DNA of 64,000 bases from Amphiscolops sp. MND2022 (lineage: Eukaryota), in assembly GCA_964187785.1 (NCBI GenBank), contig OZ076409.1, forward strand, positions 34,226,001 through 34,290,000. The letters are read 5' to 3'. The notes under the pieces were generated by a model. That model made no database searches. It saw only the letters and a list, made by a program, of their open reading frames with translations, and was not told the DNA's origin. The stretch's first letter is position 1, and every line of letters begins with the position of its first letter. The position numbers and the translations under genes were made by a program. Below, in pieces: positions 1 to 40,470 of this stretch.

Positions 1-2046
1 AGCTTTCACAGGTCCAAGTGGGATAGTGGGCGATTTGTTCAGAGCCATGACACAAGTGCAATCGCGGAACCCACAGGTTCCACATCGATATCGAGGTACT
101 CGATTCCGGCGTAAGCCATAGTGTGGGTTAACCTGCGTTGCGCCTTGGTCAACATCGGATGTAAGGTGCGCGGTGGGCGCATCAGAGTCAGAATCGGATG
201 TAATTGATGGCTGTGTGTCATTTTCACGAGCTGTTTGCCGTGAAGAAATAGTGTGTCCTCGTGGCCTCCGAGGAGGTCGTCCTCGAGGACGTCCTCTGCG
301 ACTGGGAGTCCTTTGAGCGCGCACGCTCACGTTCTGCGACCGGGAATTTGTTGCTCGTGTCGAACAACGAGATAGAGCAGCTCGCGATCTGCCCCTGCCA
401 CGCGTGCTAGGGACATTGTTCCGAGCAGTTGGCTCCTTGGTGTTGGATAACTCGGTGTCACGGGTTTCAGTGTTTTGGAGGTTGGAGGTACCATTCGGCA
501 ATTGGGGAGTACTAATAGGCACATCCGTCAATGTAGGATTTGTCAACAGAGGAGCAGATGTACCCGCTAGTGATACTTCGGCTTCTCCAGTTGCAACGGG
601 AATATCTTGCGATTGAGGTACTTCCGGAAAAACTTCAGATTCGGATAAAAATGGAAGCTCATCGGCAGGTTCAAATGACCGAGGTTGTTCATCGGGAGGC
701 ATTGAGGCTTCGAATAGCGCCGGAGGTTCTGCCTGGGAATGATCTCGGGCATCTGACAGCAAGTCGTCAGAGCGCGAACGCTCTGGGTCGGAACTGGAAT
801 AATCAAATTGCTGATAGTGGAGACGACTGCCTCCAGCTCGCATTCTAGTACGCAACCTGGTGTCCATCCAGTGGCGTCTCCTTGATGGTAGCGATACATC
901 TGATGCTTCAGAGAGCGGTTCTTCCTCGCGACATGAGGGTTGTGAGCAGTCATCTCGGATCTCCTCAGCAGAGTGCTCAGGCTCAGGATCCATGACAACG
1001 ACCACTTCGCCACTCCCCGAGGGAAGCGCAACAAACTCCGTAGGGCCACCATGATGAGGTTTCAGCCGCTCAAAGTGCACTTTTTGTCCTGAGTCCAGGA
1101 TATAGACGCGGCCATCTTGTAGTACATGGACAACCTTGTGCGGACCACGCCAAGCTCTCATCAACTTCGGTGATCCTTTTTGAGGCACATAGCGGCAGAA
1201 TACCCAAACGGGGTCTCCCACATTGTATGCGTTTGCACGAATAGCTCGATCATATTTTAGTTTTTGACGTTGTTGCGCCTGATGCGTGTTTCTACGCACC
1301 AAGTCATGAATTTCTTGCTGACGAGCAAGAATATGCTCCACATAAGCTCCGTGCGATTCAAATGATCTGGCTGCGAACTCCGGATACAGATAGGTGAGAG
1401 GAATAGCCTTTTCGGTCCCTCGGGTCAGCATGTAGGGTGAAAACCCAGTCGTGGCGTGGCGCGTTGAGTTATACGCTCCCATGACTTCATCCAAATGCTG
1501 GTCCCAATCTCTCATGCGACGCGAGCAGAATACCCGCAACAAAGTCAGCAAAGTCCGATTTTGTCGTTCAACCAGGCCTTGGGTGCGCGGGTGACCCGCC
1601 GTAGAGGTAACTTTTGTGACCTGAGATGCCCTCATGAACTCATTGGATACCTCTGCAGTCAAGTTGGGGGCATTGTCTGATTGCATCCGCGTAGGCGTGC
1701 CGTGTCTGGCAAACCATTTCTGCAAAAGCAACCTAGACGTGGTCACTGCATCGTAATCCTCATGGCTGCAGGGTACAGCCTCCGCAAACTTGGAGAAATG
1801 GTCAATTATTACCAATATGCCGGTGTTATTGTTATCGGAGGGGCATATTTTCAGATGGTCATACTGGACCAACTCATTGAAATACCCACTTTGGATATTT
1901 TTCAAGTGAAACCGAACGTCACCCGGCCTGTCACGTACTTGCTGGCACGTGAGGCACTGACTCACGTACTGACCAACACTGCGGCGAATACCTGGCCAGG
2001 TGTGGCGTTCTTGGATTCGCGAAACCACCTTTGCAAGGCCTTGGTG
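1..2046 (-). CDS. Integrase region of element 1 pol with long C-terminal tail (partial, open to window edge)
   Basis: Hand translation from 2046: HQGLAKVV...CLTC (zinc finger), QYDHLK...IIDHFSKF, QSDNAP, GLVERQNRT (DDE core), WRGPHKV (GPY/F). Frame appears stop-free to base 1, so it is missing from the ORF track; separated from RT-RH by a frameshift near 2047. Confidence 0.88.
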
Positions 2047-7055: not shown

Positions 7056-7789
7056 TTGCCCAAAAGAGTTCTCTGCAAATTTGGCGTAATATTCGGCGTT
7101 GGTGCTACTCGATACAGCGAAATAACACCAAAATGAGGCACCAGAGTGTTCAAAAAGGTGTCACACTCGGGCAATCCGCTCAAATTTGTCGTCACTAGGA
7201 AGTTGCTCCTCCCAAAATCTTGTGATTTTGGCTAAGTCGGAACACTCAGGGTCTCTTTTGGATATCGAAAACCCTGCTCCAGGTAACTCCTAGAGATTTT
7301 CGTTTGGAAAATGTAGTCCAGAGTGCGTCGCAGGCACTTTAAAACTGCTGCCTTGAACTGTTCAGGATCAAATTTCAAAGTTCCAGAGGAGTCCAAAATT
7401 TATGACCCCTGCCGGCAATTTTTTTGAACCGTGGGATTTGCCTCGTTTGCACCCAGGAAGGTCTACTGGGTCCGTTCCGTTGGAAAACGAAGGCTTTTTG
7501 GGTCTGCCTCCTGTACAGCGGAAGTATTGAGGATTTACACTGATAGTTTTTCTGGCGTTTTCGGGATTTTCGTTCAAAACGTGTGTCTGAACAAAGTCAA
7601 CTTCAGTTTTACCAATCGTACTGGGTACAAAATAACACAGCACGCTTCGTCAGCCACACAAGTCAGAAAAAAAACCTTCCGTAGCTGATAATTGCCTCCA
7701 GCTTCAAGCTAGAGCCTTTTTCAACTATTTTAGGATTTTTCAACTTTTTTCGAAAATCACTCAGATGGCTTTTACAAGTGCTGGAAACG

Positions 7790-19700: not shown

Positions 19701-22491
19701 ACTGCTGAAAACAGCTGTCATTGGCCCGGTTTGGGTAATGATTCATCTCCTGGCTTGGGTTTTTTGACGCCAATCAGTGCTTCCCTAAATAAACAGCATA
19801 AGGACTCTTAAATCAAATTTTATACATTGGTAACAGAACGTTTTAATGTCTCACAATGTAAATCTGCATAGATGTTGATTTTGTTGACAGATTCTTTCTG
19901 GCCAAATAGGATTTTACAATAAAATTTTTTTGGGAACATGGCTCTCTTTTGAGATCTTACCATGGCATTAATTACTAATTTAATACCGTGGCAAGATCTT
20001 GTCAAGATCCTAGCCAAGATTGTTCCAAGATCTTGCCAAATTAATACCGTGGCAAGATCTTGTCAAGATCTTAGCCAAGATTGTTCCAAGATCTTGCCAA
20101 TATCTTACTAAGATATCCACAGAGGGTCAACCCGGGTAGTTTGGTGGTATGGTCAATGACAAAAATAACGCAATTGGTGGAGAAAAGCAGAAATAAAAAA
20201 AACAACAATGAGAAGTCAGACCTTTGTGACCTTGAACAAGACACTTACAATCCACAGCTTCAAACCAGCCATTGCTTGACCACTTGGCTGCGAATATGGT
20301 AAAATAGGGTCCGAAAGGGTGCCGACTGAGAAAAGCAGAACTGCTTTCTCAGGATCGACCTGGCGGAAGAGGGAAAAACATTCTTTCGTTGACGTATTTA
20401 TAGAACTTTACTGGACTTTCAAAAGTGTGTCACGACAGAACATCGACTATTTCGGCCTTCCTGATTGACAGTCTTTCCACCAATAATCCAGATTTTTATT
20501 TCAAAAAAGTTGCTTTTCTTAACGTTTCTATGTGATATTATGGATTTCACATTCACATCTATATTGAAGTAGGCTGGTGCATGGGCGAAAAAGGAGCTTT
20601 TCTAGTATGCGGTCAATCCTAGTAACCCCTTTTTTTCTAGTGACCTCTGTCAATTTTTCTCCCAAGTTTTTGAAAGGATTTTTTGTTTCAACTGTTCAGG
20701 CATAGCAAAACTAAAACCTTATGTCAGAAGTGGTATGGTTTTGTCATAAAAAGCACCAGCACGTCACAATTTGTTGCGAAGTCTTTTGCACCTCATTTAT
20801 CAAGAATAACTTGTGCGGGAAAACAAATGTTAATCAAAAGATGAGTCATTAAAAACGATTGTGAATATTAAAAACGATTGTGAATTCCAACGTCATCGCT
20901 TTACAAATTTATCAACGGTTCATTTTTTTAGGTATCCTTATTCACACCGTCAGTAGTTTGGAGAGCTTGATGATGACGGACCGACCAGACATTGTCATCA
21001 GTGACCCATTTGGCGCTGCTGCAGGAACCGTAGCTGAGAAATATGACGTGCCTTTCTTAGTGGGCTTGATCATGTCATTTCCTTCTACCCGACAATGCAA
21101 GGATGGAGCAAAAGTACCAACTCCTTTGACGCCATCCTTCATTTTAGACGAAAGCAATCCTATGTGGTTGTTGAAAGCTGCCTGTACTGTGCATAATCAT
21201 ATTGGTACTATAATGACGGAAGTTATCGCCCACGAAGCCCGTTGGAAGATGAATGAAATTCGCCAGAGTAACAACCAGGAACAGTTCGACAATATCAACC
21301 ACATGTTTTCCTACTATCCAATCCTTTCGTTACTCGGTTAGTTGTTACGTGGAAGACTCATTATCGAAAGATTGGTAATTTTTCCAAAACCTAAATGATT
21401 GCAACCATAAATGACGTAGTTTCGATTTTTTTTGTCCGAATTCTATCCAAACTTGAAACTATCTGAAGATGACACTTATAACTCAATAAAGATTGGTTTT
21501 ATTTCTAGGAAAACCATTGACTCACACAGACAACTATGAGGACAAAATATTGCACGTCGGTGTTCTTCCTGATGTTTCCCCAGCTGTTGAGACGAAAATG
21601 GAGCCTGAATTGATTGATTTCATCCAAAAAAGCGACAAGCCTTTGATCTACATTTCTCTTGGAACTTATTTTGCGTTCTCAGAAAAGCACTTGCAGGTCA
21701 TTGTTGATGCCTTAGCATGGCAGCCTCACTATAATGTTATCTGGTCTAATAAACGGTGGACTCCTGAAATGGATGAAAAACTTGACAAAGGAAGATTTTT
21801 CATGCGAGCTAGTCTTCCTCAACGAAATATTTTGGAGTGCGGAAAAGTGTAAGTTCTCTCACATTTGGAAAGTTTCGGAAAACGTCAATTGCGTTATCCA
21901 TGAATGTCGTTATCCACAATTGTCAGTGTTTTTCAAGTATTCGGATGTTTCCTGGAGATTGTGTTTGTTTATTGAAACATTTGTTTCAGGAAGATCTTTG
22001 TTTCACATTGTGGTGCCAGTTCTCTGGTAGAAAGCATTCGAGCTGGTGTACCAGTCATCGGGGTGCCTCAAGGAAGAGACCAATACTTTCTGGCTCGAAG
22101 TGCCGAAGTTGCCAAAATGGGAGTTCAACTCTCCAGTGAACCTGCCCCGCAAGATCTGCTTCAGGCCTTGGACACAATCAGATCCAATTGGCTCTTCTAC
22201 CACAACAACATGAAAGATGTTTTGCATCAGTTAACACACAACTCTCAGCAAAATTTGGAGCGCGTTATTGACATGTTCGTTGCTAAAGGTCACGCTGTGG
22301 TCTTTAAAAACAGCTCCCTTTTCCCTAGCACTCACGCATTCGCATTGTTCGGAACAGTAGTTATTCTACTTCTTGTTATACCGATCTCGATTTTGTACTG
22401 CATGCTTCGATTGTGCTGCTCAAGAAAGTCAACATCAGTAACTGATGACAAGAAGACGAAAAAGAAAAAGAAGAAGAGCAAGAAAGATTGA
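16734..22491 (+). CDS. UDP-glycosyltransferase (GT1/UGT family) paralogue 1, 781 aa; exons 16734-17832, 20932-21336, 21509-21848, 21990-22491
   Basis: Signal peptide; catalytic-His region GCDSHF; PDIVISD; LIYISLGT; signature LPQ...FVSHCGASSLVESIRAGVPVIGVPQGRDQ; C-terminal TM helix and KSKKD (KxKxx). GT-AG introns phase-compatible; exon sum 2346 nt. Confidence 0.93.
18990..20350 (+). mobile_element. tRNA-headed SINE, family B (CORE-like), split by a MITE; in UGT1 intron 1
   Basis: A box TGGTATAGTGG, B box GGTTTGAACC; body resumes after 20138 and matches 40160-40470. Confidence 0.75.
19106..20136. mobile_element. Non-autonomous TIR DNA transposon (MITE), 1031 bp, TA target duplication
   Basis: 16-bp perfect TIRs CCCGGGTTGACCCTCT / AGAGGGTCAACCCGGG flanked by TA on both sides; subterminal CAAGATCTT-type repeats; a 61-bp tandem duplication at ~19980-20100. 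Confidence 0.88.
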
Positions 22492-23342
22492 GGTAATGAA
22501 GATAAAAGAATGGGTGAATAACTATAATATCAACACCAATGGTGCATAGGAGTCATATACTTGTGAAAAACATGTCATGTTTATTTCTCTTCAAATTGTA
22601 TTCCTTGCAAAGTCATTGTTCATCAACATATTCTGAGTTTGTCTGTCAGTCTTTATCAGATCGCCAATTACGGGGCTATGGCAATTTTCAAGTGCCAATC
22701 GAATGCTGAAGAGCATCCAACAAGAGATAATAATATTCATTAATTTACAAAACATTGCCCAGGTTGACCCTCACAGAACTATAACGTCTATCGTAGTAAG
22801 ATCGCTAAATGTTCGTACCAACGGGGCACTCATGCTAAAAATGCATGTTCGCAGAGCTTTTTCCATCAGTAAATAAAAAAGCATGGCAATTATGATGCAT
22901 AATATATTCATTTCACCACATTTTTTATGCGCCCATTTCAGCGTTTTTATTGATTTCTGGCATGCAGTAGTTGGTGGTCATACACCCCGTTTTTTGAGAA
23001 CTATTTTAATAAGAACTGAGGCTCAGTTTTGTAAATTTTTAAGAGCAGTGAGCTCAACTGAAAAAAGGTTTTCATAGAAAAACTGAGTGTAAATCACATT
23101 AGTAACTTAAAATTGCCCAAAAATGGTGAATTGATGTGAAATTTCGAATCAACATTGGGAACTTAAGCGTAGAGCACTGTCATTTTTTCTAATTGATTTT
23201 TCACAAAACATACTGCTACTTTGCAAGGTAGTGGTCTAAACCAGGTTGAAATTCCATTGATTATTTACAGTCACTGGAATGCGTTGCGATCTCTGTATAC
23301 GAACTCTATCATAAGTTTCATAGTGCAATCTTACTACAGCAT

Positions 23343-25529
23343 TGTCACGACCCGCTCCCGGTCGGGATTTTTCCTGTTGCGGGGGAATACCGAAATTTGC
23401 AAGAGGACGAGGACATGGCAGAACCACACACAACTAGGTAAAAACTTTGACTGATCACTTACCTTTGTTTAACTGTAGTACGAGTTAATAATCAGAACAA
23501 AAGGATTTTAGCCTAACGAAAGCGATAAGTAAAATATCCAAAAGTGATTTTAGTCGGAACGAGACTTCCGGTATAAAGTTTTCATGCGTGACCGTTCCGT
23601 TACTTCCGGTTTCGTCAGCTGAAAATTCCATACAAATCTAAATAACAAATTAAAAACATTCTTAACTTTGGGACCTTTCTCTATTCCACACTAAAATGAA
23701 AACATCAAAATGAAATTCAATTCCGAGGTCCCAACGGAATTCATACAATCTAAAATGAAAGAACATACAAAGAGAATGGCGGAATTGTTTTCCAATGATA
23801 GAATAGTTGTGAATATCCACTTAAGAACGCAGTTAAGCAACTTGAGAGAATATCTACAACGTAATGACGGCGTCACTCAGCTTGATTGAAGAGTAGATGT
23901 TTCTATTTTTACGGACCAATAGCGTCGCCTTTCACCATTCCTAGTTACCATAGCAACGCCAATTAAGCGAGAGAATAAGAATGAATTTGTTAATGCTGTC
24001 CGCTCTGTCTCCGCAAGCAAGCGTTGCTCAGTTATACCTAATCTTAATACGTACGGAGTGCTTACGGAGCAAATTGTAATGCGAAGAAGCTATACCTAAT
24101 CTTAATACGTACGGAGCGCTTACGGAGCAAATTGTAATGCGAAGAAGCTATACATAATCTTAATACGTACAGAGCGCTTACGGAGCAAATTGTGAAATGA
24201 CAAAGTTATGCCTAATGTTAATACATACAGAACGACTAAAGAGAAATGCTGCAAGATCAAAATTGTTCTAATATATCAAGATATTCCTTATGCTATACGG
24301 AACCGTAAAGGAACTTCCAAAATATCATAACATTAAAATAATACCTTTCCGAATTGTTCCCGTTTAACACCGAATAAAATCGATCGTACTACAGGTTAAA
24401 ACAAAGGAAATCATTGAAAAAAAGGTGCTTTCCTTCATTTTGAAAAAGTTGTTTTGTACATTTGATATGTTATGTTCTTTGGGCTAAATGAGCCATTGTT
24501 CTGTATTAATCAAACCATTATGTTCCAATACATGTAAAATTAGTTCAGAAGCTTAAAATGATTCTGTGTTATATTGTTTGCCATCTCAGCTCATGATCAG
24601 TATTTTCTAGCATCATTTGTTCTCTTCAAAATATTCCCAGCACGTTTACCTAAAATCACTCCGAGATATTTCCGTAGTCAAGTTTGCTTGTCATTCTTTT
24701 ACCGCGAACAAGATGATTTTCACTAGTCTCGTGATGAATCGTTGATCACGCCTGCGTGCCTTTCGCGATGAAAATTCAACTAGGCTTCCATTTTGCCGCC
24801 TTTTCCGCGATCAAACCGGAAATGATGATAATGAACAAAAATGATTTCAACAAGCACTCCGTAAGGGAGCCGTGACTAGGAATTTTAAATCGTGAACAAT
24901 TAATTAAAGGGTTGAAATAACAAGGATGATTAAGCAATTTTGATGAACAAAACCGATTTTAAGGATTCCTAGGAATTTTTAGGTGAGGAACAAATGATGC
25001 TATGAAGGTATATATACCTGAGAAGATGTAAAATCTGTTAATCTGTTTTTTAATCTGCTACGTTAATACTTCGTTTCAAAACCATATTTTCTTTGAAGAA
25101 TTCGAGTTTTCCAAAGAATAACCTCTCTTTCTTTCTCTCTCTCAAAAATGACTACCAGAAGCCAGAAGAGAAAAGCTGCTGAGGAATTAGTTTCTACTGA
25201 AATTGAGACTCCATTACCTGAAACTAGCCAAAATTCAAATCCCGTAGCGGGAACGAGTAAATCTCCTAGAGTACTCACTGAAAACCTAGAGGGAATCAAA
25301 TCATCATTGAGGAAAGAGATCATGTAGGATCTTACTAAAATCTTAGCTGAAAACCAGAAGGAGATGCTAAAACTAATAGCTCCTACTGTTAAAAAGCAAA
25401 CTATCATAAGAGCCGCTGAGGAAACAGATTCTGAATCCGAAAACATTCCGGAAAATGCAACTTCAACACCAATCAAAAACAAAATCACTGCGACTACCCG
25501 TAAAATTACACCGGTAAATAGTCGTAACA
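23343..25529 (+). repeat. 5' LTR of element 2 (2187 bp)
   Basis: TGTCACGAC...GTCGTAACA ends; direct repeat of 36997-39182 with about 25 differences counted by eye; followed directly by PBS-like TGGTGACAAGAG. Confidence 0.96.
24033..24235 (+). repeat. 58-bp tandem repeat inside the LTR (3 copies plus a decayed partial); same array at ~37686-37890
   Basis: Unit TATACCTAATCTTAATACGTACGGAG(T/C)GCTTACGGAGCAAATTGTAATGCGAAGAAGC starts at 24033, 24091 and 24149. Confidence 0.92.
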
Positions 25530-26560
25530 TGGTGACAAGAGTCCTCAATGACTCCACAAATATGGGGAAAAAGAAAACACGACCACACCGCCCACAAAGC
25601 CTGCCACCCAACGAACGAACCACGACATCAAGACTACTATTCGCCCCCCAGCCGGAAATCCATCCACCACCTCAACCTCCTTCAATGCCAAAAGCCCTCA
25701 CCGCATCTCTGCCTGTGTTTGATGGTAAGTCCGAAAAATTCGAACTTTTCGAGGACTTATTTCGAAACAACATAAAAATGTATCCACATCTAACAGAAAT
25801 CCAAACAATCAACTACTTCCACTCGCTACTACGAGGCAATGCACTACAAGCATATTGCAACTTAGACGATGCCAAAAAAGATAACTTAGAGGAGGTAATT
25901 ACGGCGTTCAAACGGCGCTTCGGAGATTTTCAATCTTCGGCCAAAGCGAGATGCGAATGGGACTCGCTACATTTTGACCCAACCAAGCAAAAGTTACATG
26001 AATTTTTGGACACACTGCAAAAAACAGCTAAAGAAGCGTTTGGCTCAGAAGCACAAAAATTCATAGACAAGGCCATATACGCCAAAATGCCGGACCACGT
26101 CAAAAAGATTCTCGACCGAGCCTACCTCGAGGACAAACCTTATAACGACATTGTCCTACATCTTGAACGAGAGATGCGCCTTAATGGTCTGGGAACCCCA
26201 GACGAAACCACGCTAGTACCACTCAATACAGTCGACGTCGTCCCACCGGAATCAAAAAAGGAACTCACCAATCGAGGAAGCTGCTTCCACTGCGGCAAAC
26301 AGGGACATTATAAAGCACAATGCCGCAAACTACGAAAAGATCGCTACTACGAAACTAAAGCACAGAACGGCATTCCCAATACCAATGAACCACCCAAACC
26401 AAAGTGTGACGCTTGTGGAAAACTCCACAAAACTGAGAACTGCTGGTACGGAGCTAACGCGGCGAATGACCCTAGGAAGAAACGACACGAGTTCGCCATA
26501 CCCACAAACCAAATCAGCGAACAACAAATCCCTTCTATTGAAATCCAGCCAAAAAACTAA
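25148..26560 (+). CDS. Element 2 gag, starting inside the 5' LTR; TAG at 25325-25327 in this LTR copy (TCT in the 3' LTR)
   Basis: MTTRSQKRK... at 25148 is in frame with the 25364-26560 ORF; capsid-like LPVFDGKSEKFELFEDLF; knuckles CFHCGKQGHYKAQC and CDACGKLHKTENC. Confidence 0.88.
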
Positions 26561-29500
26561 GAACGCCGCGCCTCCGCTTCGGGGAAACGGTAGACGCAAG
26601 GGCGTACACAATAGAAGACCCCCCAATAGGTATGAAGAAGACTTCCTCACAGAATGCAATGAGGAACCCACCCAAGACTGGCAACGTCGTTGGAACGTAG
26701 GCATGATACTCAGACACAATGCCCGACACCCAGAGGACCCAACACCACTACCGCAATGGATAACAGAATCACCCGATAACTACGCGACACTAAAAAGACC
26801 TCTACCAGAATCAAGGACCGAACGCATTTACATATATGATAGAGACTATAGATGTGACCCCTGGGACGAACCAGCCATCTATGACACAAACAAACTCTCT
26901 TTCAAAATACAAGTTTCAAATCCTCAAGCCCAATGCACTGAGAGTACAACCTTACCATCACCACCGTCACCAATCTTAAAAAAGACAACACAGTCCTCGA
27001 CAATACCCGTCACCACCACGCCCACACCAATAGATGCAGAGAACATCATCTGCATCGAGGATAAAACAATATGGACACAACAAGCAAAAGAACAACGTGG
27101 GGCAGCCAATCAAACAGTATCACCCCCAACAACAACACCCGAATTGCCAACTCAGGACAACAATCATGCAGACGACGAAGTAACGGAAAGCCCACAACAA
27201 CTGCCATATGATCTCAATATCATAAAAGAATTCATACAACATGATAAAGACGACGACTACATTCCGTTAATGTCAGCAATTACCCTCAAAAAGAAGAAAA
27301 GAATGCTCTTTATTCCTCTTGACTTTGAAAATACTAGAATTGATGCATTAGTTGACTCGGGAGCCTACATCAACGTCCTCAGCGAAAGAGACACAGACAA
27401 GATACAAAATGAAGCCAAAGCAACCAAAATCGCGATAGCACCTCCGCCCCCTTTCAAGATACAATATGCCAACACCGAACTTGAAAATGCCCGCGCGACA
27501 CATACAATGCAGTTCAAAATCGGTGACTACGCGTTCGAAGAGACTTTCATCATCATGACCAAAACATCTTACCAAATCATCGGCCTGGCATTCCTCCGGA
27601 AGCACTCCGCAATACTAGATACTGCACAAGGGACAATAGACTTTCCTAAAATACAAATCACTCTAGCCCTAAAAGATGAAAGACAAAAGTGCAACCCCAA
27701 ACCCATCACTATCAAAACGGAAGAAAAACACACCATACCAGCCCAAGCCACGCGGATCATCCACGCTTCCATCACTACAAGTAATGACCACCCAATAACT
27801 GGGACAGTCCAACCTCTACCACAGTTCGACGAAAATGCAAAACTCAAAGTAGCCCCAGCAATAACAAACGAGTCGCGATAAAAATAGCGAACACCACAGA
27901 CTTCCCCTATACAGTAACGCCACATACGAAACTAGCAGAATTACAAATACTGAAACCTGAAGAAACGAAATTGATACGAGCAGTAGATATAGCAGCCCTC
28001 AATCTACTCACCGAACACGACGACGTTGTTGCGTATGCTAATGCATTGATGCAAGTTGATTCGTCAGAACAAACAGAAGAGAAATTCTGGTTCCCAACTC
28101 CCGAAAATCCCGGAGATGAATCGGAACACACACCCATCCAACAACGCATTCTACGAGAACTACGCGAACTACAAAGATTAGAAGAACTGGATCCTAAACA
28201 AGACGAAAAATCCAGAACACAATTCCTTTCGCTATTCAAATGGAATGACTCGCTAATAACGGGGGAAGACCGTGAAAACCTAGAGTCCACCCTAGTCGAA
28301 TTCAATGACATCTTTGCACGTCACCGACTAGACATCGGAATGCACAACCAGTTCAAAGTATGCCTAACCCCTAAAAACGACAAACCGGTATATACACAGA
28401 GTCTCCCCGTACCCATCAACCTCAAAGACGACCTCACAGTAGAATTAGCGCTGATGCACAAATATGGGATCATCACAACTCTCCCATTCTCAAAGTATGC
28501 CAGCCCCATCTTCGCGCAACGCAAACCTAACGGCAAATTGCGGCTCCTAGTGGACTTACGGAAGATCAACGCCCTCATCTCAGATGACTACATAAACAAT
28601 AACCACCCCATCAGCACCCTCTCAGACGCCGCACAACACCTAGCGGGGAAACAGCTGTTCTGCAAACTAGACTGCTCACAAGCCTATCACTGCCTCCAAA
28701 TGGCAGATCAAAGGTCAGTAGAACTCCTTGCATTTAATTTTGCTAGTAGAACGTTTGCCTATCGCAGGCTAGCCCAAGGACTTAGTAGAGCCTTGTCGGC
28801 CTTTTCGAGCTTCATGCGGGAATACCTCGACACCGTCATCAAAGCCGACCAGTGTGCCCAATATGTGGACGACATCGGGATTGCCGCCAACACAACGGAA
28901 CAACTCATCAAGAACATCAGAGCAGTCTTCAAATGCATCCGCAAAGCCGGACTAAAACTCACAATTGAAAAATGCCACTTTGGCGTCACCCAAATCGAAT
29001 TCCTGGGAAGAACCATCACACCCCACGGAGTAGCACCGCAAGATCACAAAATCACCAATTTTTTGTCAAAAATCAGATTTCCCCGATCAAAGAAACAAGT
29101 CCAGAAATACATTGGATTTATCAACTACTACAGAAACTACATACCGAGACTGTCTGAAAAGATGATTGGAATGTATGAACTCCTAAAAGCAGATGCAAAA
29201 ATCACCATATCAGAAGAACTAGTCGACAACTTCAAAGCCATCAACGCAAGCCTAGCGGAAGCATGTGGACTAGCCCTCAGACAACCAGTTGCGGGAAAAC
29301 AATACGTACTTATGACGGACGCAAGTTTCCGAGCATCAGGACATGCCCTAATGATAGAAGAAAACGATAACAAAAAGCTACTCTCCTAACGGAAAACTTT
29401 CGCACCGGTCGCTTTTGGCTCCCGCGTATTTTCTCCGTCACAGCTGAAAATGTCAATATACTGTAAAGAGTTCCTCGCCATTTACCATGCATTCTTAGAA

Positions 29501-31752
29501 TACAGTCATATCTTATGGGAAACGACACTACCAACTCTAGTCTTAAAGGACAATAGATCAGTAACAAAGTTTTTCCAAACAAAGACAAAGCCTATTGCGC
29601 TCTGGAATGCTTGTGACTATGTACTACAATTCAAATTCCGCATTATGCACGTAGCCGGGTCACAAAACACAGCTGCCGATTTCCTGTCTCGCCTAGAACT
29701 AACGCCAAAAGGAAAAGTTCAGCTCAAGCTACGAGACGACATTATAACGGCGCCCATCGAAGTCAACCTACAGTCCACAGATGTTGCTGACGAAGAACAA
29801 CTTTTTTCCTACCAGACGAGGAAGAAGAATCAGAACAAGAAACTTTTGCAAGAAAAGCTCTCAACAAACAACGAGCAGAGGACGAAAAAGAACAACAAAA
29901 CTTATCCACTGAAATAACAGAAGCAGTCCATATACCGCTCAATACGGCAGTCTACGCTTTTGGAGCAATCAAAGAAAACGCCCGAATACGCAACGAACAA
30001 GATGCAGATCCAATTCTGAAAGCACTAAAGCTACGTCTACTACACGAGGAATATGACAAACATGTCCTCAAAACTGAACCAAGAGGGAGAAACTTGCTAC
30101 GCCACGAAGAAAGAATAATAGTCAAAGATGGAGTTCTCATGCGCAAATATTACGGAGAAGATGGCACAATCACGCACCATCAAATCCTCTTCCCGAAACA
30201 CATAGACCCTGAACTCCTATCAACTCTGCACGGAAAAACCAACAAACATCCAGGAATAACAAAAATGATCCAAGAAAGCCGAACAAAATACTACTATCCG
30301 GGACTTGCTCGGAAAACTAGAGCCTGGGTAATCAACTGCCCTGACTGCATAGCCAACAAACGGATCGACACAAGACAAATACGCCCAAAAATGCTGAGCA
30401 ACACAGAATTTACCTTTGGCCCAGAGGATTGCTTAGAAGTTGACATTCTGCCAAATTTGCCTTCATCCAATGGATACAGGCACATCATAACAATGATGGA
30501 TGTTTTCTCTCAATACCTCTTCGCATACCCTACGCAAGACATGACAGCCAGAACAGTAGGCCGATGCATAATCGACGTAATGACACGCCATTGTTACCTG
30601 CCTACAATAATCCTCACTGACAAAGGATCACAATTCCGATCAGATGTTGTAAATCAGATAGCACAAACTCTTGACATACGAATTAGCCACGCATCAACGA
30701 AACATGCACAAACGATTGGAATACTTGAGAGAACCCACGCATCACTAAAAACGTCCTTAAAAATATCAACGGGAGAACGACGTTCAATGTGGCATAAATA
30801 TGTACAAATTGCAGTTATGAACTATAACACAAGCTACCACGAAAGCCTAGGCTGCGAACCGACAACAGTATTCCACGGACGCATCCCGTACAACATTCTG
30901 GACATCAAACTGGGACTCAAGCCAGAATGGAAGAAAGACGCCAACGAAGGTCTAACGGATGAATTACAAAAACATATCACCGAAATCCACCAGTCAGCCA
31001 AGGACAACCTCATGCAATCATATTTGAAGTATAAGCGATATTACGATAAAAAAGTGACAGCAACGCCATTGAAAATCAATGACTAATGCTACGTCCTAAA
31101 TCCGAAGGCTGATAACCAGTCAATGAAATGCGCTTTCAAAGATTGCATTTGGGCAGGGCCATATATAGTGGTCAAAGTCCTTTCCAATAACAATTACGTT
31201 GTAAGACGGACGGGAACAAGATACACGCAAACCCTCCATAGAATTCGCCTAAGGCTATACGCACCCAATCAACGAGTACCTGACGTAACAGTCAAAGTGG
31301 AAGATCAGCTTCCAGATCCTGAGGTTAAAACAACCCATGATGATTGGTACGCGCAAGCTTGGGAAACCGAAATCGGAGAAGTTCTGTTCGGAACCCCAAC
31401 GGAAAACAACACTGAAGAAGCTACTATCACGGAAGTACAAGCTGAAGACGGAAATACAACGGACCATGAAACAGTTATAACAACTGCAGATGAGAGTACA
31501 ACGATAGATAAAACATCCTCCGGAGATAATACGTCATTTAACTTAGACGTCAGCGAAAACCCTTTCATAATGAGCCCGCCGCCTACAGAAAGCCCCCCAA
31601 TACCACCTACACTGCCGCCTATAGTTGTTGGATACAATCCCAGAAAAACAGGAAGATATAACTTACGTCCTAATCCTAAACCTAACGCACACCCCGACTT
31701 TAGGATGCTGGACGCAATCATCACGGAAGAGAATTCTCAAACTCAAAATTAG
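26551..31752 (+). pseudogene. Element 2 pol (PR, RT, RNase H, integrase), disrupted
   Basis: ALVDSGA, YVDDIG, MTDAS, H...H...CPDC, EVDIL/TDKGSQF/ERTH, WAGPY. Lesions: probable 1-nt loss at 26619-26624, frameshifts at ~27870 and ~29806, TAA at 29387 and 31084. Confidence 0.95.
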
Positions 31753-31930
31753 ATAAAAACGATCAGAGAACCAAACCGAACCGGGATGGCTATGTTAATT
31801 TGGTTCCTCCTTATTACACTAAAACTACAAAAATACACAAAAAAAGAATACGATTCTCAAGCAGTCTCTATACATCAACAACAAAACTGCAAAAGCCAAC
31901 AATCAGAATAAATCATACAAACACAGAGTG

Positions 31931-34900
31931 CTACAATTTCTTCAGCTTATGAAAGATTTCCGGATCCTCATCGGTACTGTCTTTTACCTTCTTAGGCTTC
32001 TTCTTATTTTTCTTCTGGGGACTAGTACACGTAGTAGCCTCTTTACTAGAACTTGACTTCCCAGTGGACACAGCACGTTGACTAGGGCCCTTCCCTTTTG
32101 CCGACACAGAAACATTGCCACCACTCGTTGCTGCCACAGACGTACCCTGCAATGCGCGGGCAAGACGATTACTCTTATTGAGATCAGAATAATAAGACTC
32201 GAAAGACTGACGGCGACCGTGTAAAAAGGTATCGTATAGGCCCTGATATCGGGACGCAAACGCCTCGGCAATTCCACTACAAAATTCCGTCCACAGATCA
32301 AAGTTCGGAGCCACGTAAAACACCCCAGCATCAGCAATTGCCTCTTCCACAGCGTCCAAAGTGGGATCAGTAAAAAAGCTTTTATGTGAATACCGAGGGC
32401 TCAACACATAACTCTGTACCAAGAGCAAACACTCGCGGAACTTCTGTTCAGATAATTTACTCGCGCTCAGGTCGAAAGTCACGACAGGATAATTCTCACG
32501 ATGCCTGCCTGTAATCAGCACACACAGTTTCAAAACTCGACAAGCATGCACACGAGCTTGAAAACCAAAATCGCGCAGCAGCCAACACACGATGTCAGGA
32601 ATCTCACTAGCCACCCCCATAGATGCCTCGTGATGAGAACGCCTCTCCACAACGTAACTACTGAACTCCTCTACCGCAGCTTTTGATTCATCGGACAATA
32701 GGGCCCCACAAGTTTCAAAGATCCGACAAAGATCCGAAAATAGGCGGAATACTAACTGTCCGTCACCTTCTAACAGTAGCTCTGGACAAAAGCTGTATAA
32801 CCCGCGAGACACTCGGGTTGATGCGCTGGGACTCTTCAAAATCACTACAATCAGTCGGTCAAGAAACTCCCGACAACGCACGCGGAACGTAGAGAACTCG
32901 CTTGTCTTTCCAGCCAGTAACTCACGCCCATAATCAGAACCAGCAAGAAAAGACTCCATGGCGATCGGAGGGAACTCGGCAACCTTCTCTACATCCATAA
33001 ATTTCTCCCACTCATTCAAAGTAGGGAAGCTCTCAGTGCGCCGCGTCTTCAGTAGTAAACAATATACGAAGTCACACAATTCGCCATATCCGTGGAACCC
33101 GTAGTCACTCCGTCGCTGCAACAACTTTGCACAATTGATGTGAACTAAAACAGATCGAAATAGTCAGGTAGGCCATTACGCAAACCACTCGGAAACAACA
33201 GAAAATAAAACACAAAAACAGTACTCAAACAGTTGGAGACAAACAGTCACAACACGAAACAATCCAGCATGATATACTCACAAGTATCGAGAACCAGCCG
33301 CAACAAACCGAAACGATACGGCGTCATATTGTCCGCAATAATATGCCAGTCTGTCCCCTTCATCTAAAAACAATCACCTACTATATCAGAGGAAAGTAAC
33401 AAGCATAGAAAAGCGACAAAAAAAGGGAGGAAAAAGGGGGAGAAGGGGAAAGAAAGACACACGTGACAAATAAGAAGAAACAACTAACGGTATCAGCTAT
33501 CTCCTTAGCTTCGGGATGGCCTGTACATCGAACGAAAGGTTGTATTATTGGCCACAGATCAATAACGTCAGATAAAAATTGACGGTAATCAGCAAAGTCC
33601 ACGGAGCCCTGACGTACACATTTACGAAGAACAAATTTATCCTCCGTCCACTCCTCGTACAAGGCACTCTTGAGAAGATGAATTAAATACTCCACTAAAG
33701 TTACAATGCTGACCATTCCGAAAATATCTTTGTCAGCCTGCAACACACACTGGAGTAACGTCTCTTCATCAAAGGTTTGATGCACCACAAACCGACGTCC
33801 ATCAGCGCGATTGTCGTCCAGCACCCGGATCAAAGACGGACTAGCCCCGAGAATAGATATAGGCAACTAGCTTGCGCTCAAACTGCGAACAACTTTGGAC
33901 AAAGGCAACAATTCCGGTAGGGGTACAGCCTGATTCAAAGCTTCACAGCCAACACAAATCTTCTTGACATCCTTGTCGTCCCAATACACAACGTAGCAGC
34001 GCTCATCCCCACACTCCTTCTCAAATTGGACGCCATAGCTCCGGAAACTCATGAAGCTGCTACGCATAGAACGCAACACCCGCGGAGCAAGACCTCGGCA
34101 CAGAAACGACTAAAAAACGCACAGTCAAACTTACCTCTGAAAAAACGGGACTTGCACTTCTGAGGAAAACACCTTACAAATAGGATGAGGGGACACGTTA
34201 GAGAAAATTAGAAAAGAAAAAGAACCCTACATAAAATACTAACCACGGTCTCGGAACGACTCCAATTTAAAGCAAACTGTGGCTCTTGCTCCTCGCTCAA
34301 CGACGCAAGAAAGTGGCTCCACAATCGACGAAGCAACAGGAAATCGCCTCCACTACGTAACAGCTCGCACAGACAGCCCACCAAAGTCATGAAAGGCACT
34401 TTCGAACCAACCCGAGAGTGTTTCGGCAAGAGTTCTTCAGGGAATGGGTATCCCTCACTAAGGTCTTCAAAAGGCCGCGATTGATACTCCGCTAATTGAC
34501 TGGCAGACAGCTCCATTGGCTCCATAAAACTGTTCAACACTGGTAACTTCATGTGTACACGATAAGTCACATCCTTGAACCAGTGACTGTCGGACTGGAA
34601 GTGGCGAGCAAATTCATCAGAGCCGTGAGCCTTTATACCGACATCTCGGCGACAAACGCGACAGAAGAAAAACTTGCCGTTACCACTCCGAGGCCCCGAC
34701 ACAAAATCGGGGAACGCTGGATGGAGATTTAGCATCCGTCGATGAAGGTAATTGCGGCTGCTGTATTTCTTCTCCTTAGGCCGTTTAGACAGCCGGTCCC
34801 CCATCTTCTCAACAAAATCGTCAAGACCTAGAAGAAACACCAACAACCATTGAGTAAACCATCACATGCAACAAAGTATTACCACCAAGACAAAAAAAAG

Positions 34901-35863
34901 AAGAAAGAACCAACCGATCTGAAGCCGAGTCTCCACCTGGCCCGCAAGCTGACGCCCAAATTCCAAAATATCCTGCGGACTGAGAGCAGTACCACCAGTA
35001 AGAAGCAGAAGCTCTGGCTCATCTTGACCTGAACAAAATAACACCAAATACCCCCTAATATCAAACACAGAAGATAATGATTATCGTCAAAGAAAAACAC
35101 TGACTAATCCATCCAGGAGCACGGGTCAAAAGTGGAGGCGGAGGAACAATCTTTTTAGCACGCTTAGGCGGGGTCGCAAAATTGACTGACGTCCTACGGG
35201 CAGCACTCGGTTCACCTGCCCAACAAAACACAAACAAGATTTATAAATAACACCACAGAGTCGCTTATTCTAGTCATTCAAAATTACAGACCCTTCTTCG
35301 CAATTTGGATGAGGGGGGCATCAGTCTCACCTCCTTGAGACTCACTATCTGAACCATCAGGAGGGGAAGGAACAGGATCGGGGACATGGGGTTGCCTCTC
35401 ATCAGGATCAACGCCGGCACTCGCTGGATCTTCAGCGGAACATGAAAGGAAAAGTCCAGATGAAGGCCCAGATCCAGACGCACTAAGCGCGGAAGTCAAC
35501 ATATCATTGACAGAAGCACGAACAGTCAGAATGGTTGAAACCGGAGGCAACACGGAAGAACTGGAAACAACTACTGCCGCGGAAGTGACACAAGTATTAG
35601 CGGCTGAAGTTGAGACAGGTTGAGGTACTGAAAATCAAGATCTGGTTTGACGCGTCAGAGTTACGGGTAAGACTACAAAAAGGCTGATCACCAAAAACAA
35701 GATCCAATTACCCATGGAAGTCAGAAAGATTTTACCAACCTGCTCTAGCACGAACAAATTCTGTCTCCGATTGCACATCGTCATCGGTGTAATTAAATGT
35801 TGTTTCATTCCCACTAAGGAAACCAACAGAAGGCACATGAGGGGAATTACCTTCATTCTCCAT
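31931..35863 (-). CDS. Spliced antisense accessory gene in element 2, ~1061 codons, BED-like zinc finger; coding exons 35863-35740, 35627-35292, 35215-35105, 35028-34915, 34827-34244, 34109-33489, 33363-33282, 33144-31931; one in-frame TAG at 33869-33867
   Basis: Seven introns of 76-137 bp, all GTnnGT...YAG with mostly T-rich tracts and all phase-compatible (exon sum 3186 nt); joins six minus-strand ORFs of the track into one frame; CRVC-x16-H-x5-H motif and NLS-like PPKRAKK. Confidence 0.85.
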
Positions 35864-35899
35864 CGCGGGCAAGCAGCGGAAGAAATCTTCAAAACGATC

Positions 35900-36356
35900 T
35901 AAAACAAGAAAAGAACAATTAGGAAGATACAGTCAAAAGAAAAAAAAACAATCTGAATTTTTCAGAAACGTCTAAGCTTAAGGAAAACGTTAACGGAAGA
36001 TTAACGAAATACAAATTGGTCAAATCAAGGAAGAAATACTAAGAAAGAAGAAACAATTTGCATGCCATGACGTCACACAAACGATATCCCTTCGGGAAGA
36101 AATTGATGACGCCATAACGAAATCCAAATTTAGAAACTTCATCTCAACGGTTCAGCCAATCACAGAGCAGATGGAAGTGAAACGCTTTCCGAAGATGAAA
36201 CGAAACGGAATAAGAAGAAAAATATCAGCCAATAGGAATACAGGAAAAACACGAATAGAAGAAAATTGACCTCTTCATTTACCGTACAATAAGCGTAAAG
36301 AAAAGTTTGTCCAGAATTAATTCTTCAAGTCTCAGACAGGAATTGCTAAAAGAAAA
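35900..36356. promoter_or_regulatory. Candidate internal bidirectional promoter between two divergent accessory ORFs
   Basis: TGACGTCA at 36068-36075, CCAAT at 36156 and 36229; lies between the start codons at 35863 (-) and 36357 (+). Confidence 0.4.
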
Positions 36357-37091
36357 ATGGACAACTATGCCCTTGTCATCGACATCTCATCGGACGAAGA
36401 AGAACAAAGGACTATGGCGAGGCAAAGCACCCCAATTAAAATAGCTCCCGTCAACGTAATAACTACGTTAGACCTGTCCGGATCTTCACTAGAAGCTACC
36501 AAAGGGAGCGCTGAAGAAGTGATGTCCTCCATCAATGAACATAACTTATCAAATATATCTGCCTCAACGTTTGAGACAATAGGCTCCCCCAGAAAAATAA
36601 CATTCGGAACGTCAAGCCCCGGAGAAGTTTTTACAGTGGAGGGACAAGCCGCTGAAAATTCGGAAGAGAGCTATTATGAAGAACCTGATACCCCGCGGCA
36701 GTTACCCCCACCGCAAAGTGCACCGGTCCTACAAGACGTGACTAATCGCCAACACTCGTCAAACGAACCACCTACGAAAATTGATCGTCTAGATGATCTA
36801 ATGGAGCCTCATATAAATGAGATAGAAGAGTCCTACGGAATCAGTTTGCAGGACAGCCCGAAGTACAGCCCGCTGTGTGGTCGCGGAACCCGCTACACGT
36901 CTGCCAAGTTAACAAGAATGCAAAAACAGCCCGTGCTTATCACTAGAGAAATCCCACATTGCCCCAGACCTTGGTCAACAGGCTATAGAGGCGCCCTGTC
37001 ACGACCCGCTCCCGGTCGGGATTTTTCCTGTTGCGGGGGAATACCGAAATTTGCAAGAGGACGAGGACATGGCAGAACCACACACAACTAG
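36357..37091 (+). CDS. Accessory sense ORF of element 2 (244 aa, acidic, Ser/Pro-rich, unknown function); ends 95 nt inside the 3' LTR
   Basis: Uninterrupted ORF with AAAAATGG start context; N-terminal VIDISSDEEE; no recognised domain. Confidence 0.6.
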   Translation: MDNYALVIDISSDEEEQRTMARQSTPIKIAPVNVITTLDLSGSSLEATKGSAEEVMSSINEHNLSNISASTFETIGSPRKITFGTSSPGEVFTVEGQAAENSEESYYEEPDTPRQLPPPQSAPVLQDVTNRQHSSNEPPTKIDRLDDLMEPHINEIEESYGISLQDSPKYSPLCGRGTRYTSAKLTRMQKQPVLITREIPHCPRPWSTGYRGALSRPAPGRDFSCCGGIPKFARGRGHGRTTHN

Positions 37092-39182
37092 GTAAAATCT
37101 TTGACTGATCACTTACTTTGTTTAACTGTAGTACGAGTTAATATTCAGAACAAAAGGATTTTAGCCTAACGAAAGCGATAAGTAAAAAATCCAAAAGTGA
37201 TTTTAGTCGGAACGAGACTTCCGGTATAAAGTTTTCATGCGTGACCGTTCCGTTGCTTCCGGTTTCGTCAGCTGAAAATTCCATACAAATCTAAATAACA
37301 AATAAAAAACATTCTTAACTTTGGGACCTTTCTCTTTTCCACACTAAAATGAAAACATCAAAATGAAATTCAATTCCGAGGTCCCAACGGAATTCATACA
37401 ATCTAAAATGAAAGAACATACAAAGAGAATGGCGGAATTGTTTTCCAATGATAGAATAGTTGTGAATATCCACTTAAGAACGCAGTTAAGCAACTTGAGA
37501 GAATATCTACAACGTAATGACGGCGTCACTCAGCTTGATTGAAGAGTAGATGTTTCTATTTTTACGGACCAATAGCGTCGCCTTTCACCATTCCTAGTTA
37601 CCATAGCAACGCCAATTAAGCGAGAGAATAAGAATGAATTTGTTAATGCTGTCCGCTCTGTCTCCGCAAGCAAGCGTTGCTCAGTTATACCTAATCTTAA
37701 TACGTACGGAGTGCTTACGGAGCAAATTGTAATGCGAAGAAGCTATACCTAATCTTAATACGTACGGAGCGCTTACGGAGCAAATTGTAATGCGAAGAAG
37801 CTATACCTAATCTTAATACGTACGGAGCGCTTACGGAGCAAATTGTGAAATGACAAAGTTATGCCTAATGTTAATACATACAGAACGACTAAAGAGAAAT
37901 GCTGCAAGATCAAAATTGTTCTAATATATCAAGATATTCCTTATGCTATACGGAACCGTAAAGGAACTTCCAAAATATCATAACATTAAAATAATACCTT
38001 TCCGAATTGTTCCCGTTTAACACCTAATAAAATCGATCGTACTACAGGTTAAAACAAAGGAAATCATTGAAAGAAAGGTGCTTTCTTTCAGTTTGAAAAA
38101 GTTGTTTTGTACATTTGATATGTTATGTTCTTTGGGCTAAATGAGCCATTGTTCTGTATTAATCAAACCATTATGTTCCAATACATGTAAAATTAGTTCA
38201 GAAGCTTAAAATGATTCTGTGTTATCTTGTTTGCCATCTCAGCTCATGATCAGTATTTTCTAGCATCATTTGTTCTCTTCAAAATATTCCCAGCGCATTT
38301 ACCTAAAATCACTCCGAGATATTTCCGTAGTCAAGTTTGCTTGTCATTCTTTTACCGCGAACAAGATGATTTTCACTAGTCTCGTGATGAATCGTTGATC
38401 ACGCCTGCGTGCCTTTCGCGATGAAAATTCAACTAGGCTTCCATTTTGCCGCCTTTTCCGCGATCAAACCGGAAATGATGATAATGAACAAAAATGATTT
38501 CAACAAGCACTCCGTAAGGGAGCCGTGACTAGGAATTTCAAATCGTGAACAATTAATTAAAGGGTTGAAATAATAAGGATGATTAAGCAATTTTGATGAA
38601 CAAAACCGATTTTAAGGATTCCTAGGAATTTTTAGGTGAGGAACAAATGATGCTATGAAGGTATATATACCTGAGAAGATGTAAAATCTGTTAATCTGTT
38701 TTTTAATCTGCTACGTTAATACTTCGTTTCAAAACCATATTTTCTTTGAAGAATTCGAGTTTTCCAAAGAATAACCTCTCTTTCTCTCTCTCTCTCAAAA
38801 ATGACTACCAGAAGCCAGAAGAGAAAAGCTGCTGAGGAATTAGTTTCTACTGAAATTGAGACTCCATTACCTGAAACTAGCCAAAATTCAAATCCCGTAG
38901 CGGGAACGAGTAAATCTCCTAGAGTACTCACTGAAAACCTAGAGGAAATCAAATCATCATTGAGGAAAGAGATCATGTCTGATCTTACTAAAATCTTAGC
39001 CGAAAACCAGAAGGAGATGCTAAAACTAATAGCTCCTACTGTTAAAAAGCAAACCATCATAACAGCCGCTGAGGAAACAGATTCTGAATCCGAAAACATT
39101 CCGGAAAATGCAACTTCAACACCAATCAAAAACAAAATCACTGCGACTACCCGTAAAATTACACCGGTAAATAGTCGTAACA
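36997..39182 (+). repeat. 3' LTR of element 2 (2186 bp)
   Basis: Direct repeat of 23343-25529, followed by TSD AGCAT; carries an intact copy of the gag N-terminus from 38801. Confidence 0.96.
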
Positions 39183-40159
39183 AGCATCACGCCAATTTTA
39201 TAAGGAATCGTAATCCTAAGATTTTGGCATGGATCGTGTCGCGATCGTACTACGACTTACATTGAGGTACTCAACCCTCAGAAGTAGGATAAAATCCTAA
39301 ACACCACTAGCACAGAGTATAACATTTCCTCAAGTAAAAGGTTTTCATTCCAAAGGTAACTCTGTAAATCGTATAAAACAAAAGTTTTTTCTTCTGATGT
39401 TTCATCCACGTTTTTGAATCGAATATATATTGAAACAGCTTCGAAAAAATCTTTCAAATGCTAGTTTTTATGATTAAGAAGCAATGACAGAACGGTGTAA
39501 AGTTGAGAAGCTGAAGAATGACAACAGACGGAACTGATTAATCAAAATGACATGACATCTCAAGCAACACTTTGGCCATTTTCGTCTTCGAAATGAGCAA
39601 CTTGGACAATCGACTATCGTACATGCTGGAACCGATGTTTGAGATAGAGAAACACAATGCAAATCGCTGGAGGAACTATCGTTGCCTGGCAGCTCAAGCA
39701 CCATCAGAAAACACCTTCTGTGCTTCAAAAATGCGTACTAATTACTGAGCCAGAGATGATCTACTGCAGCTAAACCTTTACATGAAACACAATGTTTCCA
39801 GACAAATCGAGTTTTTTGCCAATAAACCCAAGATATTTTCTCCTCCTTTTCGACAAATATTTCCTATTAGACTGAAGGCTGCTTGAAATTTACCAGTGAA
39901 TTTCGAGTAATGCTGATCGATACTAGAGCTTTCAATCACTGAGCACGAAAAACCCAAAGGGATACGCATAAGACTGGAAAATTGCTTTTTCGTATTTGGA
40001 AACAAAAGAAAACAGTTTTTCGAAAACATTATTTTCCAAAAATTATTTTCTTTGGAAAAAAGCTTCATAGTGCCAAAAAATGAACTTTATCTGAGTAAAT
40101 GGTTTTTTCAAGCCGAAAACACTTATGGAATCGAAGAGGCTACACTTTCAATAAACAGT

Positions 40160-40470
40160 ATTCATTCGGCCTGTACAGGGGCGGTATCAGGTTCGAATCT
40201 CTCTCAACTCACCATTGTTGGTCCTTAAGTAAGTCCTTCATCCCTAGCTTAGCGGTATGGTCAGTGACACAAAATAACGCATGCGGCGGAGAAAAGCAAA
40301 ACAAAAAAGAGCAACGGTGAGCGGTCAGACCTTTGTGACCTTGAGCAAGTCACTTTGAAACCACAGCTTCAAGCCCACCACTGCTTGATCACTTGGCTAA
40401 TACCATAGCTTGCTATGGGGAGATAGTATCCGAAAGGGTGCCGACTTAGAAAAGCAGAACTGCTTATTCG
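40160..40470 (+). mobile_element. SINE family B copy (5'-eroded)
   Basis: B box GGTTCGAATC; shares GTCAGACCTTTGTGACCTTGA and CCGAAAGGGTGCCGACT...AAAAGCAGAACTGC with 18990-20350. Confidence 0.75.

Follow-up and report, generated by a model that had tools for sequence, protein, structure and literature searches.

A Gypsy-type retrotransposon family of the animal Amphiscolops carries a conserved, predicted eight-exon gene in antisense orientation

According to the papers cited here, additional open reading frames (ORFs) in antisense orientation between pol and the 3′ long terminal repeat (LTR) occur in plant Gypsy elements, namely gene23 of Grande, RIRE2, and TRP28 of Retand (PMC7264820, PMC11963269, PMC8220671). 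These ORFs are described as having a promoter of their own and a nuclear or DNA-binding product, and they have been proposed to be regulators of retrotransposition (PMC7264820, PMC11963269). An antisense gene, brtn, is also reported for the Boty-like Gypsy elements of Botrytis (PMC7264820, PMC8365987), and such antisense ORFs have been likened to retroviral antisense genes, among them HBZ of human T-lymphotropic virus (HTLV) (PMC11963269). The word "intron" occurs 0 times in the plant-element reviews PMC7264820 and PMC11963269. Here, we report on a stretch of 64,000 nucleotides (nt) from Amphiscolops sp. MND2022, hereafter called the window, which holds a full-length LTR element of 15,840 bp at 23343-39182 with a predicted multi-exon gene placed antisense between the integrase and the 3′ LTR.

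LTR retrotransposons are usually seen as gag-pol machines with or without env, and accessory genes are regarded as a hallmark of complex retroviruses. To our knowledge, the few known antisense extra ORFs come from plants and one fungus; Zhao et al. (2011) reportedly described brtn of Botrytis, and Gomez-Orte (2013) is a reference cited in the context of the plant ORFs. The gene predicted here resembles gene23, RIRE2, and TRP28 in that it lies antisense, with pol on one side and the 3′ LTR on the other, in a Gypsy element of unusual length, and it resembles brtn as an antisense additional gene of a Gypsy element, the host of brtn being a fungus. In contrast to gene23 and TRP28, which are described as single uninterrupted ORFs, it resides in an animal host, comprises eight exons separated by seven conserved introns, and encodes a product of about 1060 amino acids. 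Pfam and database searches detected no relationship to the plant antisense proteins, although the plant reference sequences were not aligned directly. HBZ, whose spliced transcript is driven by the 3′ LTR, is likewise an accessory gene running antisense in the 3′ region of a retroelement, and it encodes a regulatory nuclear protein; unlike HBZ, the gene studied here has no bZIP or other known Pfam domain and has seven introns instead of one. A full-text literature search retrieved no description of an antisense gene with introns in an LTR retrotransposon of an animal. While the architecture as such was already known, and the logic is probably shared with the known antisense accessory genes, the animal host, the seven conserved introns, the size of the product, and the apparently unrelated orphan protein appear to be new.

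We consider it likely, with a probability of roughly 0.8, that an abundant and active Gypsy-type family carries a selected eight-exon antisense accessory gene, which would be spliced, would act in the nucleus, and would be needed by the propagating lineages. The gene model in the window is composed of the following parts, given in the order of the minus strand:
35740-35863, minus strand: exon 1, carrying the ATG (35863-35861)
35628-35739, minus strand: intron 1, palindrome-rich and the most conserved stretch of the module
35292-35627, minus strand: exon 2, low-complexity Ser/Pro/acidic, the last ~30 nt conserved across subfamilies
35105-35215, minus strand: exon 3, with a conserved PPKR(A/S)(K/R) motif resembling a nuclear localisation signal (NLS)
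34915-35028, minus strand: exon 4
34244-34827, minus strand: exon 5, 584 nt, with a CCHH zinc-finger-like C-x2-C-x16-H-x5-H motif at about 34583-34663
33489-34109, minus strand: exon 6, 621 nt, carrying a TAG at 33867-33869
33282-33363, minus strand: exon 7, 82 nt
31931-33144, minus strand: exon 8, 403 codons plus stop, with a predicted helical domain, a long helix, and a Lys-rich tail

This model originates from a sequence-only reading of the window, which had named seven GT-AG introns by donor and length and had joined them in phase into about 1061 codons with one internal TAG. All seven were located as described: read along the minus strand, introns 1 to 7 run from 35739-35628 (112 bp, donor GTTGGT), 35291-35216 (76 bp, GTCTGT), 35104-35029 (76 bp, GTCAGT), 34914-34828 (87 bp, GTTGGT), 34243-34110 (134 bp, GTTAGT), 33488-33364 (125 bp, GTTAGT), and 33281-33145 (137 bp, GTGAGT). 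The combination of donor hexamer, length, and terminal AG defined a unique place for six of them, while GTTGGT with 87 bp occurred twice, the second place being unusable. A pyrimidine-rich (T-rich) tract precedes every one of the seven acceptors. Joining the eight exons reproduced the reading frame, with 3186 nt corresponding to 1061 codons plus stop, every junction in phase, and codon 504 as the only internal stop; this TAG is the sole lesion of the antisense gene in the window. The plus strand has no frame of more than 94 codons across the same stretch. The carrier had been called a full-length Gypsy element, which agrees with the 98.86% identity of the LTR pair over 2187 bp (direct-repeat comparison within the window), with its TG..CA ends, with the target-site duplication AGCAT, and with Gypsy-type pol domains.

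In order to place the gene in the context of the element family, the exon-8 protein was compared with the 1.07-Gb genome. The comparison yielded 7138 first-look candidates, and all 103 scored matches (103/103) had E <= 6e-125, falling into identity bands of about 82-100%, 63-73%, and 51-54%; 82 of these 103 were free of internal stops. We drew 20 sister loci of 10 kb each from the exon-8 matches across all identity bands. In 20/20 of these gene-sampled loci, exons 5, 6, 7, and 8 were found in equal order and spacing, the integrase followed on the opposite strand directly beyond exon 8, and a homologue of the sense ORF at 36321-37091 of the window lay beyond exon 1. As a control for sampling bias, ten loci were drawn only from the best integrase matches, and 1.4 kb were inspected at the place expected for exon 8; it was present in antisense orientation at the expected distance in 10/10. 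The exon layout recurs in every copy examined, including subfamilies that are about 50% identical in protein, and no copy without the module was encountered among the 30 sampled loci (20 via the gene, 10 via the integrase). This constant position in 30/30 sampled copies argues that the module is part of the element and not an independent insertion. Judged by these comparisons, the gene is an integral part of the element family.

LTR elements are copied via RNA, which removes sense introns, while antisense introns survive; the antisense introns would be kept at every retrotransposition because the element's own genomic RNA cannot splice them. We found GT..AG at the homologous place of intron 5 in 20/21, of intron 6 in 21/21, and of intron 7 in 21/21 copies. 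At introns 3 and 4, both the GT and the AG column are kept in 6/6 aligned subfamily representatives, the GT donor of intron 2 lies within a few nt in 6/6 (GTTACT in one of them), and intron 1 together with the ATG column is conserved in 8/8. Exon lengths in the sister loci are nearly constant (exon 5, 581-587 nt in 17/20; exon 6, 621 nt in 16/20; exon 7, 82 nt in 18/20), whereas introns 5-7 vary between 78 and 217 nt. Furthermore, similarity to ORF fragments in the databases ends exactly at the intron-5 donor and at acceptors. In one young subfamily, intron 6 was found between exact flanking motifs in 59 copies and was missing in 0. Based on these patterns, we infer that a transcript would be spliced as modelled.

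The exons bear the mark of selection. Within the subfamily of the window, exons 5-8 have a ratio of nonsynonymous to synonymous substitution rates (dN/dS) of 0.22-0.25, and exons 1-4 one of 0.17-0.66. Between subfamilies, the proportion of synonymous differences (pS) in exons 5-8 reaches 0.74-0.85, which is saturated, while that of nonsynonymous differences (pN) is 0.16-0.32; DNA identity is 59-85% in exons 5-8 compared to 30-64% in introns 5-7. Exons 5-8 are open to the full-length stop in 10/20 sister loci, that is, in 2/9 loci of the window's subfamily and in 8/11 of the other subfamilies. At the position of the window's TAG, a sense codon is present in 5/5 subfamily representatives taken from the exon-6 alignment loci. 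At the level of these alignments, the data show purifying selection on the antisense gene. Since inserted copies decay neutrally, a dN/dS of about 0.2 between lineages suggests that the propagating lineages would need the protein.

The sequence-only reading had noticed no terminal inverted repeats or target-site duplication around the module, for which no dedicated search was made here, and had taken the module for a part of the element rather than a nested insertion. It had proposed a search of further genomic copies, with sister copies that lack the module and have a target-site duplication marking an independent insertion as a case that would speak against it. No such copy was met in the 30 sampled, and the module shares its place in 20/20 and 10/10 sister copies. 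Its further expectations, namely conserved splice sites (seen for introns 2-7), better conservation of exons (5-8) than of introns (5-7 drift), dN/dS below 1 in the exons, and a sense codon at 33867-33869 in sisters, also agree with the values given above. The constant place, the conservation of the splice sites, and dN/dS of about 0.2 thus support its proposal that this lineage carries a multi-exon accessory gene.

The antisense gene evolves fast compared with the integrase. For the same copy pairs, the integrase shows a pN of 0.03-0.08 and a dN/dS of 0.03-0.16, and amino-acid change in the antisense protein is 4-10 times faster than in the integrase. Across the ten integrase-sampled loci, the integrase is 94-97% identical in protein compared to only 40-54% for exon 8. 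The contrast is also evident in single pairs. Between the window and sister locus L022, pol is mostly 91-95% identical in nt (integrase dS, 0.30), whereas identity drops to 49-79% in the antisense gene, whose synonymous sites are saturated. The element of the window and sister locus L015 are about 96% identical throughout, except for 36250-37250, where identity is 64-72%; this mosaic cassette contains a sense ORF, ORF3, which lies head-to-head with the antisense gene. The simplest reading of these patterns is that recombination between co-existing lineages shuffles deeply diverged versions of the antisense gene as well as a cassette of ORF3 and the LTR start.

The region upstream of the antisense gene comprises two features:
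35864-36356: promoter-like spacer of about 490-500 bp between the antisense ATG and the sense ORF3 ATG
36357-37091, plus strand: sense ORF3, 244 codons, reaching 95 nt into the 3′ LTR

The spacer contains a perfect cAMP response element (CRE), TGACGTCA, at 36068-36075, a CRE-like motif at 36107-36114, and CCAAT at 36015-36019 and 36156-36160. Between the antisense start codon and the 3′ LTR boundary lie 1.1 kb that include the promoter-like motifs, which makes an internal promoter likely rather than one in the LTR. The start motif of ORF3, M-x-x-Y-x-LVIDISSDEE, is kept across subfamilies, and we take it to be similar to a SUMO-interaction motif.

Intron 1 behaves differently from the other introns. 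The most distant subfamilies, which share 60-70% identity in their exons, share 88-90% nt identity in intron 1. Intron 1 contains the palindromes CCATGG, TGATCA, TGACGCGTCA, and AGATCT, and there is complementarity between its 5′ splice site and the start of exon 2. We found no Rfam family match for intron 1, no unusual stability of its RNA fold (z-scores of 0.05 and -0.26), and no informative covariation. Intron 1 may serve to control the internal promoter, or it may be a cis element that functions in the genomic RNA.

Exon domains of the encoded protein were modelled singly, from unspliced translations. For exon 8, AlphaFold2 predicts a confident all-helical domain at residues 10-210 (predicted local distance difference test, pLDDT, of about 90), after which come a long helix and a Lys-rich tail that is disordered; VIA-align of this model gave matches only to the single long helix at 290-337. 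Confidence is low for the exon-6 model (pLDDT 58.8), which has no significant Foldseek match. Pfam returned no family at E <= 1 on any exon, apart from weak unrelated matches. An exhaustive profile search with exon 8 among 1.84 billion representative proteins identified 696 relatives, all of <=443 amino acids, and the ten that were checked are all unnamed ENA entries on long contigs. Protein searches with exons 5 and 6 returned only ENA fragments without Pfam domains, a "longer" protein search with exon 8 gave 0 matches, the PDB sequence profiles gave 0 matches for the antisense protein, and two metagenome scans revealed no relatives of it. ESM Atlas clusters annotated as RabGAP-TBC, at 0.77, are below the useful range and were dismissed. 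In the zinc-finger-like motif of exon 5, C55 and C58 are invariant, while H75, H81, and H91 each occur in 17-18 of the 19 sequences; its spacing presumably resembles that of BED fingers. The PPKR(A/S)(K/R) motif of exon 3, which we take to resemble an NLS, is kept in 6/6 subfamily representatives. A nuclear location of the product is suggested by the NLS-like motifs, and only by these. On the basis of the searches, the predicted antisense product is an orphan protein of about 1060 residues.

Taken together, these observations are compatible with the following sequence of events. The element's genomic RNA would carry the antisense introns unspliced, so that they are copied at each retrotransposition. 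Antisense transcription would probably start from an internal promoter in the spacer shared head-to-head with ORF3, and the transcript would be spliced as modelled and then translated. The product, with a low-complexity N-terminal part bearing NLS-like motifs, a CCHH zinc-finger-like motif, and an all-helical C-terminal domain, would act in trans, in the nucleus, on nucleic acid. Because the protein evolves fast and is reshuffled by recombination, we tentatively prefer, at somewhat less than even odds, to see it as a regulator or a factor at the host interface and not as a replication enzyme; it might control expression of the element itself or counteract silencing by the host. One may go further and propose a three-part module engaged in an arms race with host silencing, consisting of a fast-evolving nuclear zinc-finger gene, a control element in intron 1, and ORF3 with its SUMO-interaction-like motif; we regard this as possible but rather unlikely. 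The same doubtful proposal would have diverged "types" of the antisense gene swapped by recombination between otherwise near-identical elements.

Several points weigh against a spliced, nuclear-acting accessory gene. The gene model is built on sequence comparison only, and the exact borders of exons 2-4 are ambiguous in distant subfamilies, where enumeration gave many models or none. A genome search with a gapped pattern for the exon 6/7 junction found 0 intronless processed copies. No canonical AATAAA or ATTAAA is present within 430 nt downstream of the stop, where only AATAAG at 31815 occurs, and there is no TATA box upstream of the antisense ATG. The motifs in the spacer are short, and the CRE pair is kept in only 5/8 subfamily representatives. 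Moreover, the conservation of intron 1 exceeds that of every exon, which the picture of drifting introns leaves unexplained. With respect to the protein, Pfam, profile, and PDB searches found no relative of known function, the exon-8 model has no Foldseek match at E <= 0.001 and no known-fold match, which makes its role conjectural, and Pfam zinc-finger models do not match exon 5, so that the finger reading comes down to four residues.

Other explanations have to be weighed against the same data. A host gene captured in antisense orientation by an ancestral element could be carried along as a passenger without benefit to the element; no origin other than capture is obvious for a gene with introns within a retroelement, and the protein resembles nothing typical of retroelements. 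However, a passenger would decay, whereas dN/dS is about 0.2 across lineages with saturated synonymous sites, the gene is kept in all ten integrase-sampled copies, and exons 5-8 are open in most loci of the more distant subfamilies (8/11). In addition, database searches revealed no named or differently placed host paralogue, the relatives being short unnamed ORF fragments, and we consider a passenger improbable. Purifying selection alone leaves the beneficiary open, and a host-domesticated gene family under selection for the benefit of the host would also produce it. The gene is, however, always embedded in complete elements with LTRs, many with an open pol of 1741-1742 amino acids, and dozens of near-identical copies per subfamily, 59 with exact flanks in one of them, are a signature of transposition, which leaves domestication only a very slim chance.

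A mobile element, for example a hAT-like one, might instead have inserted into one copy and been amplified along with it, as could be argued from the exon-5 spacing, which recalls BED fingers, and from the appearance of the Hermes hAT transposase at Foldseek ranks 8, 11, and 17 for the exon-6 model, matches that are non-significant and stem from a low-confidence model. This is extremely unlikely in view of module borders that are equal in all subfamilies, including those with an integrase dS >1, and of the lack of a module-free copy among the integrase-sampled loci. A hAT origin was examined as a candidate in its own right and is not supported: profile-profile comparison of exons 5, 6, and 8 against a set of five intact hAT transposases encoded in this genome gave hhalign probabilities of 0.1-0.3%, Pfam zf-BED, DUF4371, and hAT dimerisation domains did not match, and Hermes was found only at E 0.7-1.1 with the exon-6 model of pLDDT 59. 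That the ORFs and GT-AG pairs arose by chance in a long non-coding 3′ region can be entertained inasmuch as the antisense gene is known here from sequence alone; set against the conserved layout, splice sites, and exon lengths, the selection, and the confidently predicted exon-8 fold, the likelihood of there being no gene is practically negligible. A selected antisense accessory gene of the element accordingly remains our preferred reading.

The carrier of this gene has the following organisation:
23338-23342 and 39183-39187: target-site duplication AGCAT, 5 bp, left and right of the element
23343-25529, plus strand: 5′ LTR, 2187 bp, TG..CA ends, with four 58-bp tandem units at 23972-24304
directly after the 5′ LTR: primer-binding-site-like TGGTGACAAGAG (TGG...)
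25328-31752, plus strand: gag (DUF1759) and pol (protease, RVT_1, RT_RNaseH, Integrase_H2C2, rve), by domain matches
36997-39182, plus strand: 3′ LTR, TG..CA ends

The 3′ LTR contains the tandem units (4 x 58 bp) as well, at 37625-37957. The Pfam domains of pol follow the order Asp_protease, RVT_1, RT_RNaseH, Integrase_H2C2, and rve. The DUF1759 match covers the gag region at 25328-26560; we take this domain to be more usual in Bel/Pao elements, while the protease, RNase H, and integrase match Gypsy-type models. The nearest ESM Atlas clusters of the integrase include "Gypsy retrotransposon integrase-like", and its neighbours there are taxonomically mixed (Chordata, Basidiomycota, and Arthropoda). 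By its LTR ends, target-site duplication, and pol domain order, the carrier is of the Ty3/Gypsy type (Metaviridae). An uninterrupted pol frame of 1741-1742 codons was found in dozens of family copies among the genome-wide integrase matches, and the family looks recently active. Judged against the open frames of 1741-1742 amino acids in many sister copies, the pol of the window has at least four lesions, namely in-frame stops ending at 29389 and 31086 and frame changes near 27788-27881 and 29791-29917. The window copy is full length but dead, because two in-frame stops and two or more frame changes interrupt pol, and its antisense-gene subfamily is a minor, more decayed one within the family.

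The six-frame search of the 1.07-Gb assembly gave 146 rhodopsin-type G protein-coupled receptor matches, by which the host is an animal; the fungal Zn_clus domain gave 0 matches in the same type of search, but its control was also without matches, so that this result carries no weight. Elsewhere in the window, a second, unrelated Gypsy-type element is located at 1962-7160 on the minus strand in a GC-richer stretch, with open frames of 905 and 826 codons containing protease, RVT_1, and RT_RNaseH. A UDP-glycosyltransferase-like exon is present at 21976-22488 (plus strand), 0.85 kb upstream of the LTR element. We also observed direct repeats of ~210 bp with 80% identity at 20137-20346 and 40245-40465, which is ~3 kb and ~1 kb outside the LTRs. 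The LTR element may lie within a host gene region that was duplicated, or within an older repeat.

Overall, these findings from a family with thousands of copies in an animal genome suggest that retroelements can carry ordinary nuclear, spliced genes when these face backwards. Such an antisense gene may be needed for the success of the element and can evolve like a host-interface factor, that is, fast and with recombination. For genome annotation it constitutes a hazard, as gene prediction is liable to turn the antisense exons, by the thousand, into orphan host genes or pieces of such genes. How the element regulates itself could be studied starting from the orphan helical domain and from intron 1 with its extreme conservation. 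If the arms-race proposal were true, the three-part module would be to a retrotransposon what accessory and regulatory genes are to complex retroviruses, and only elements that keep antisense introns could evolve such a module.

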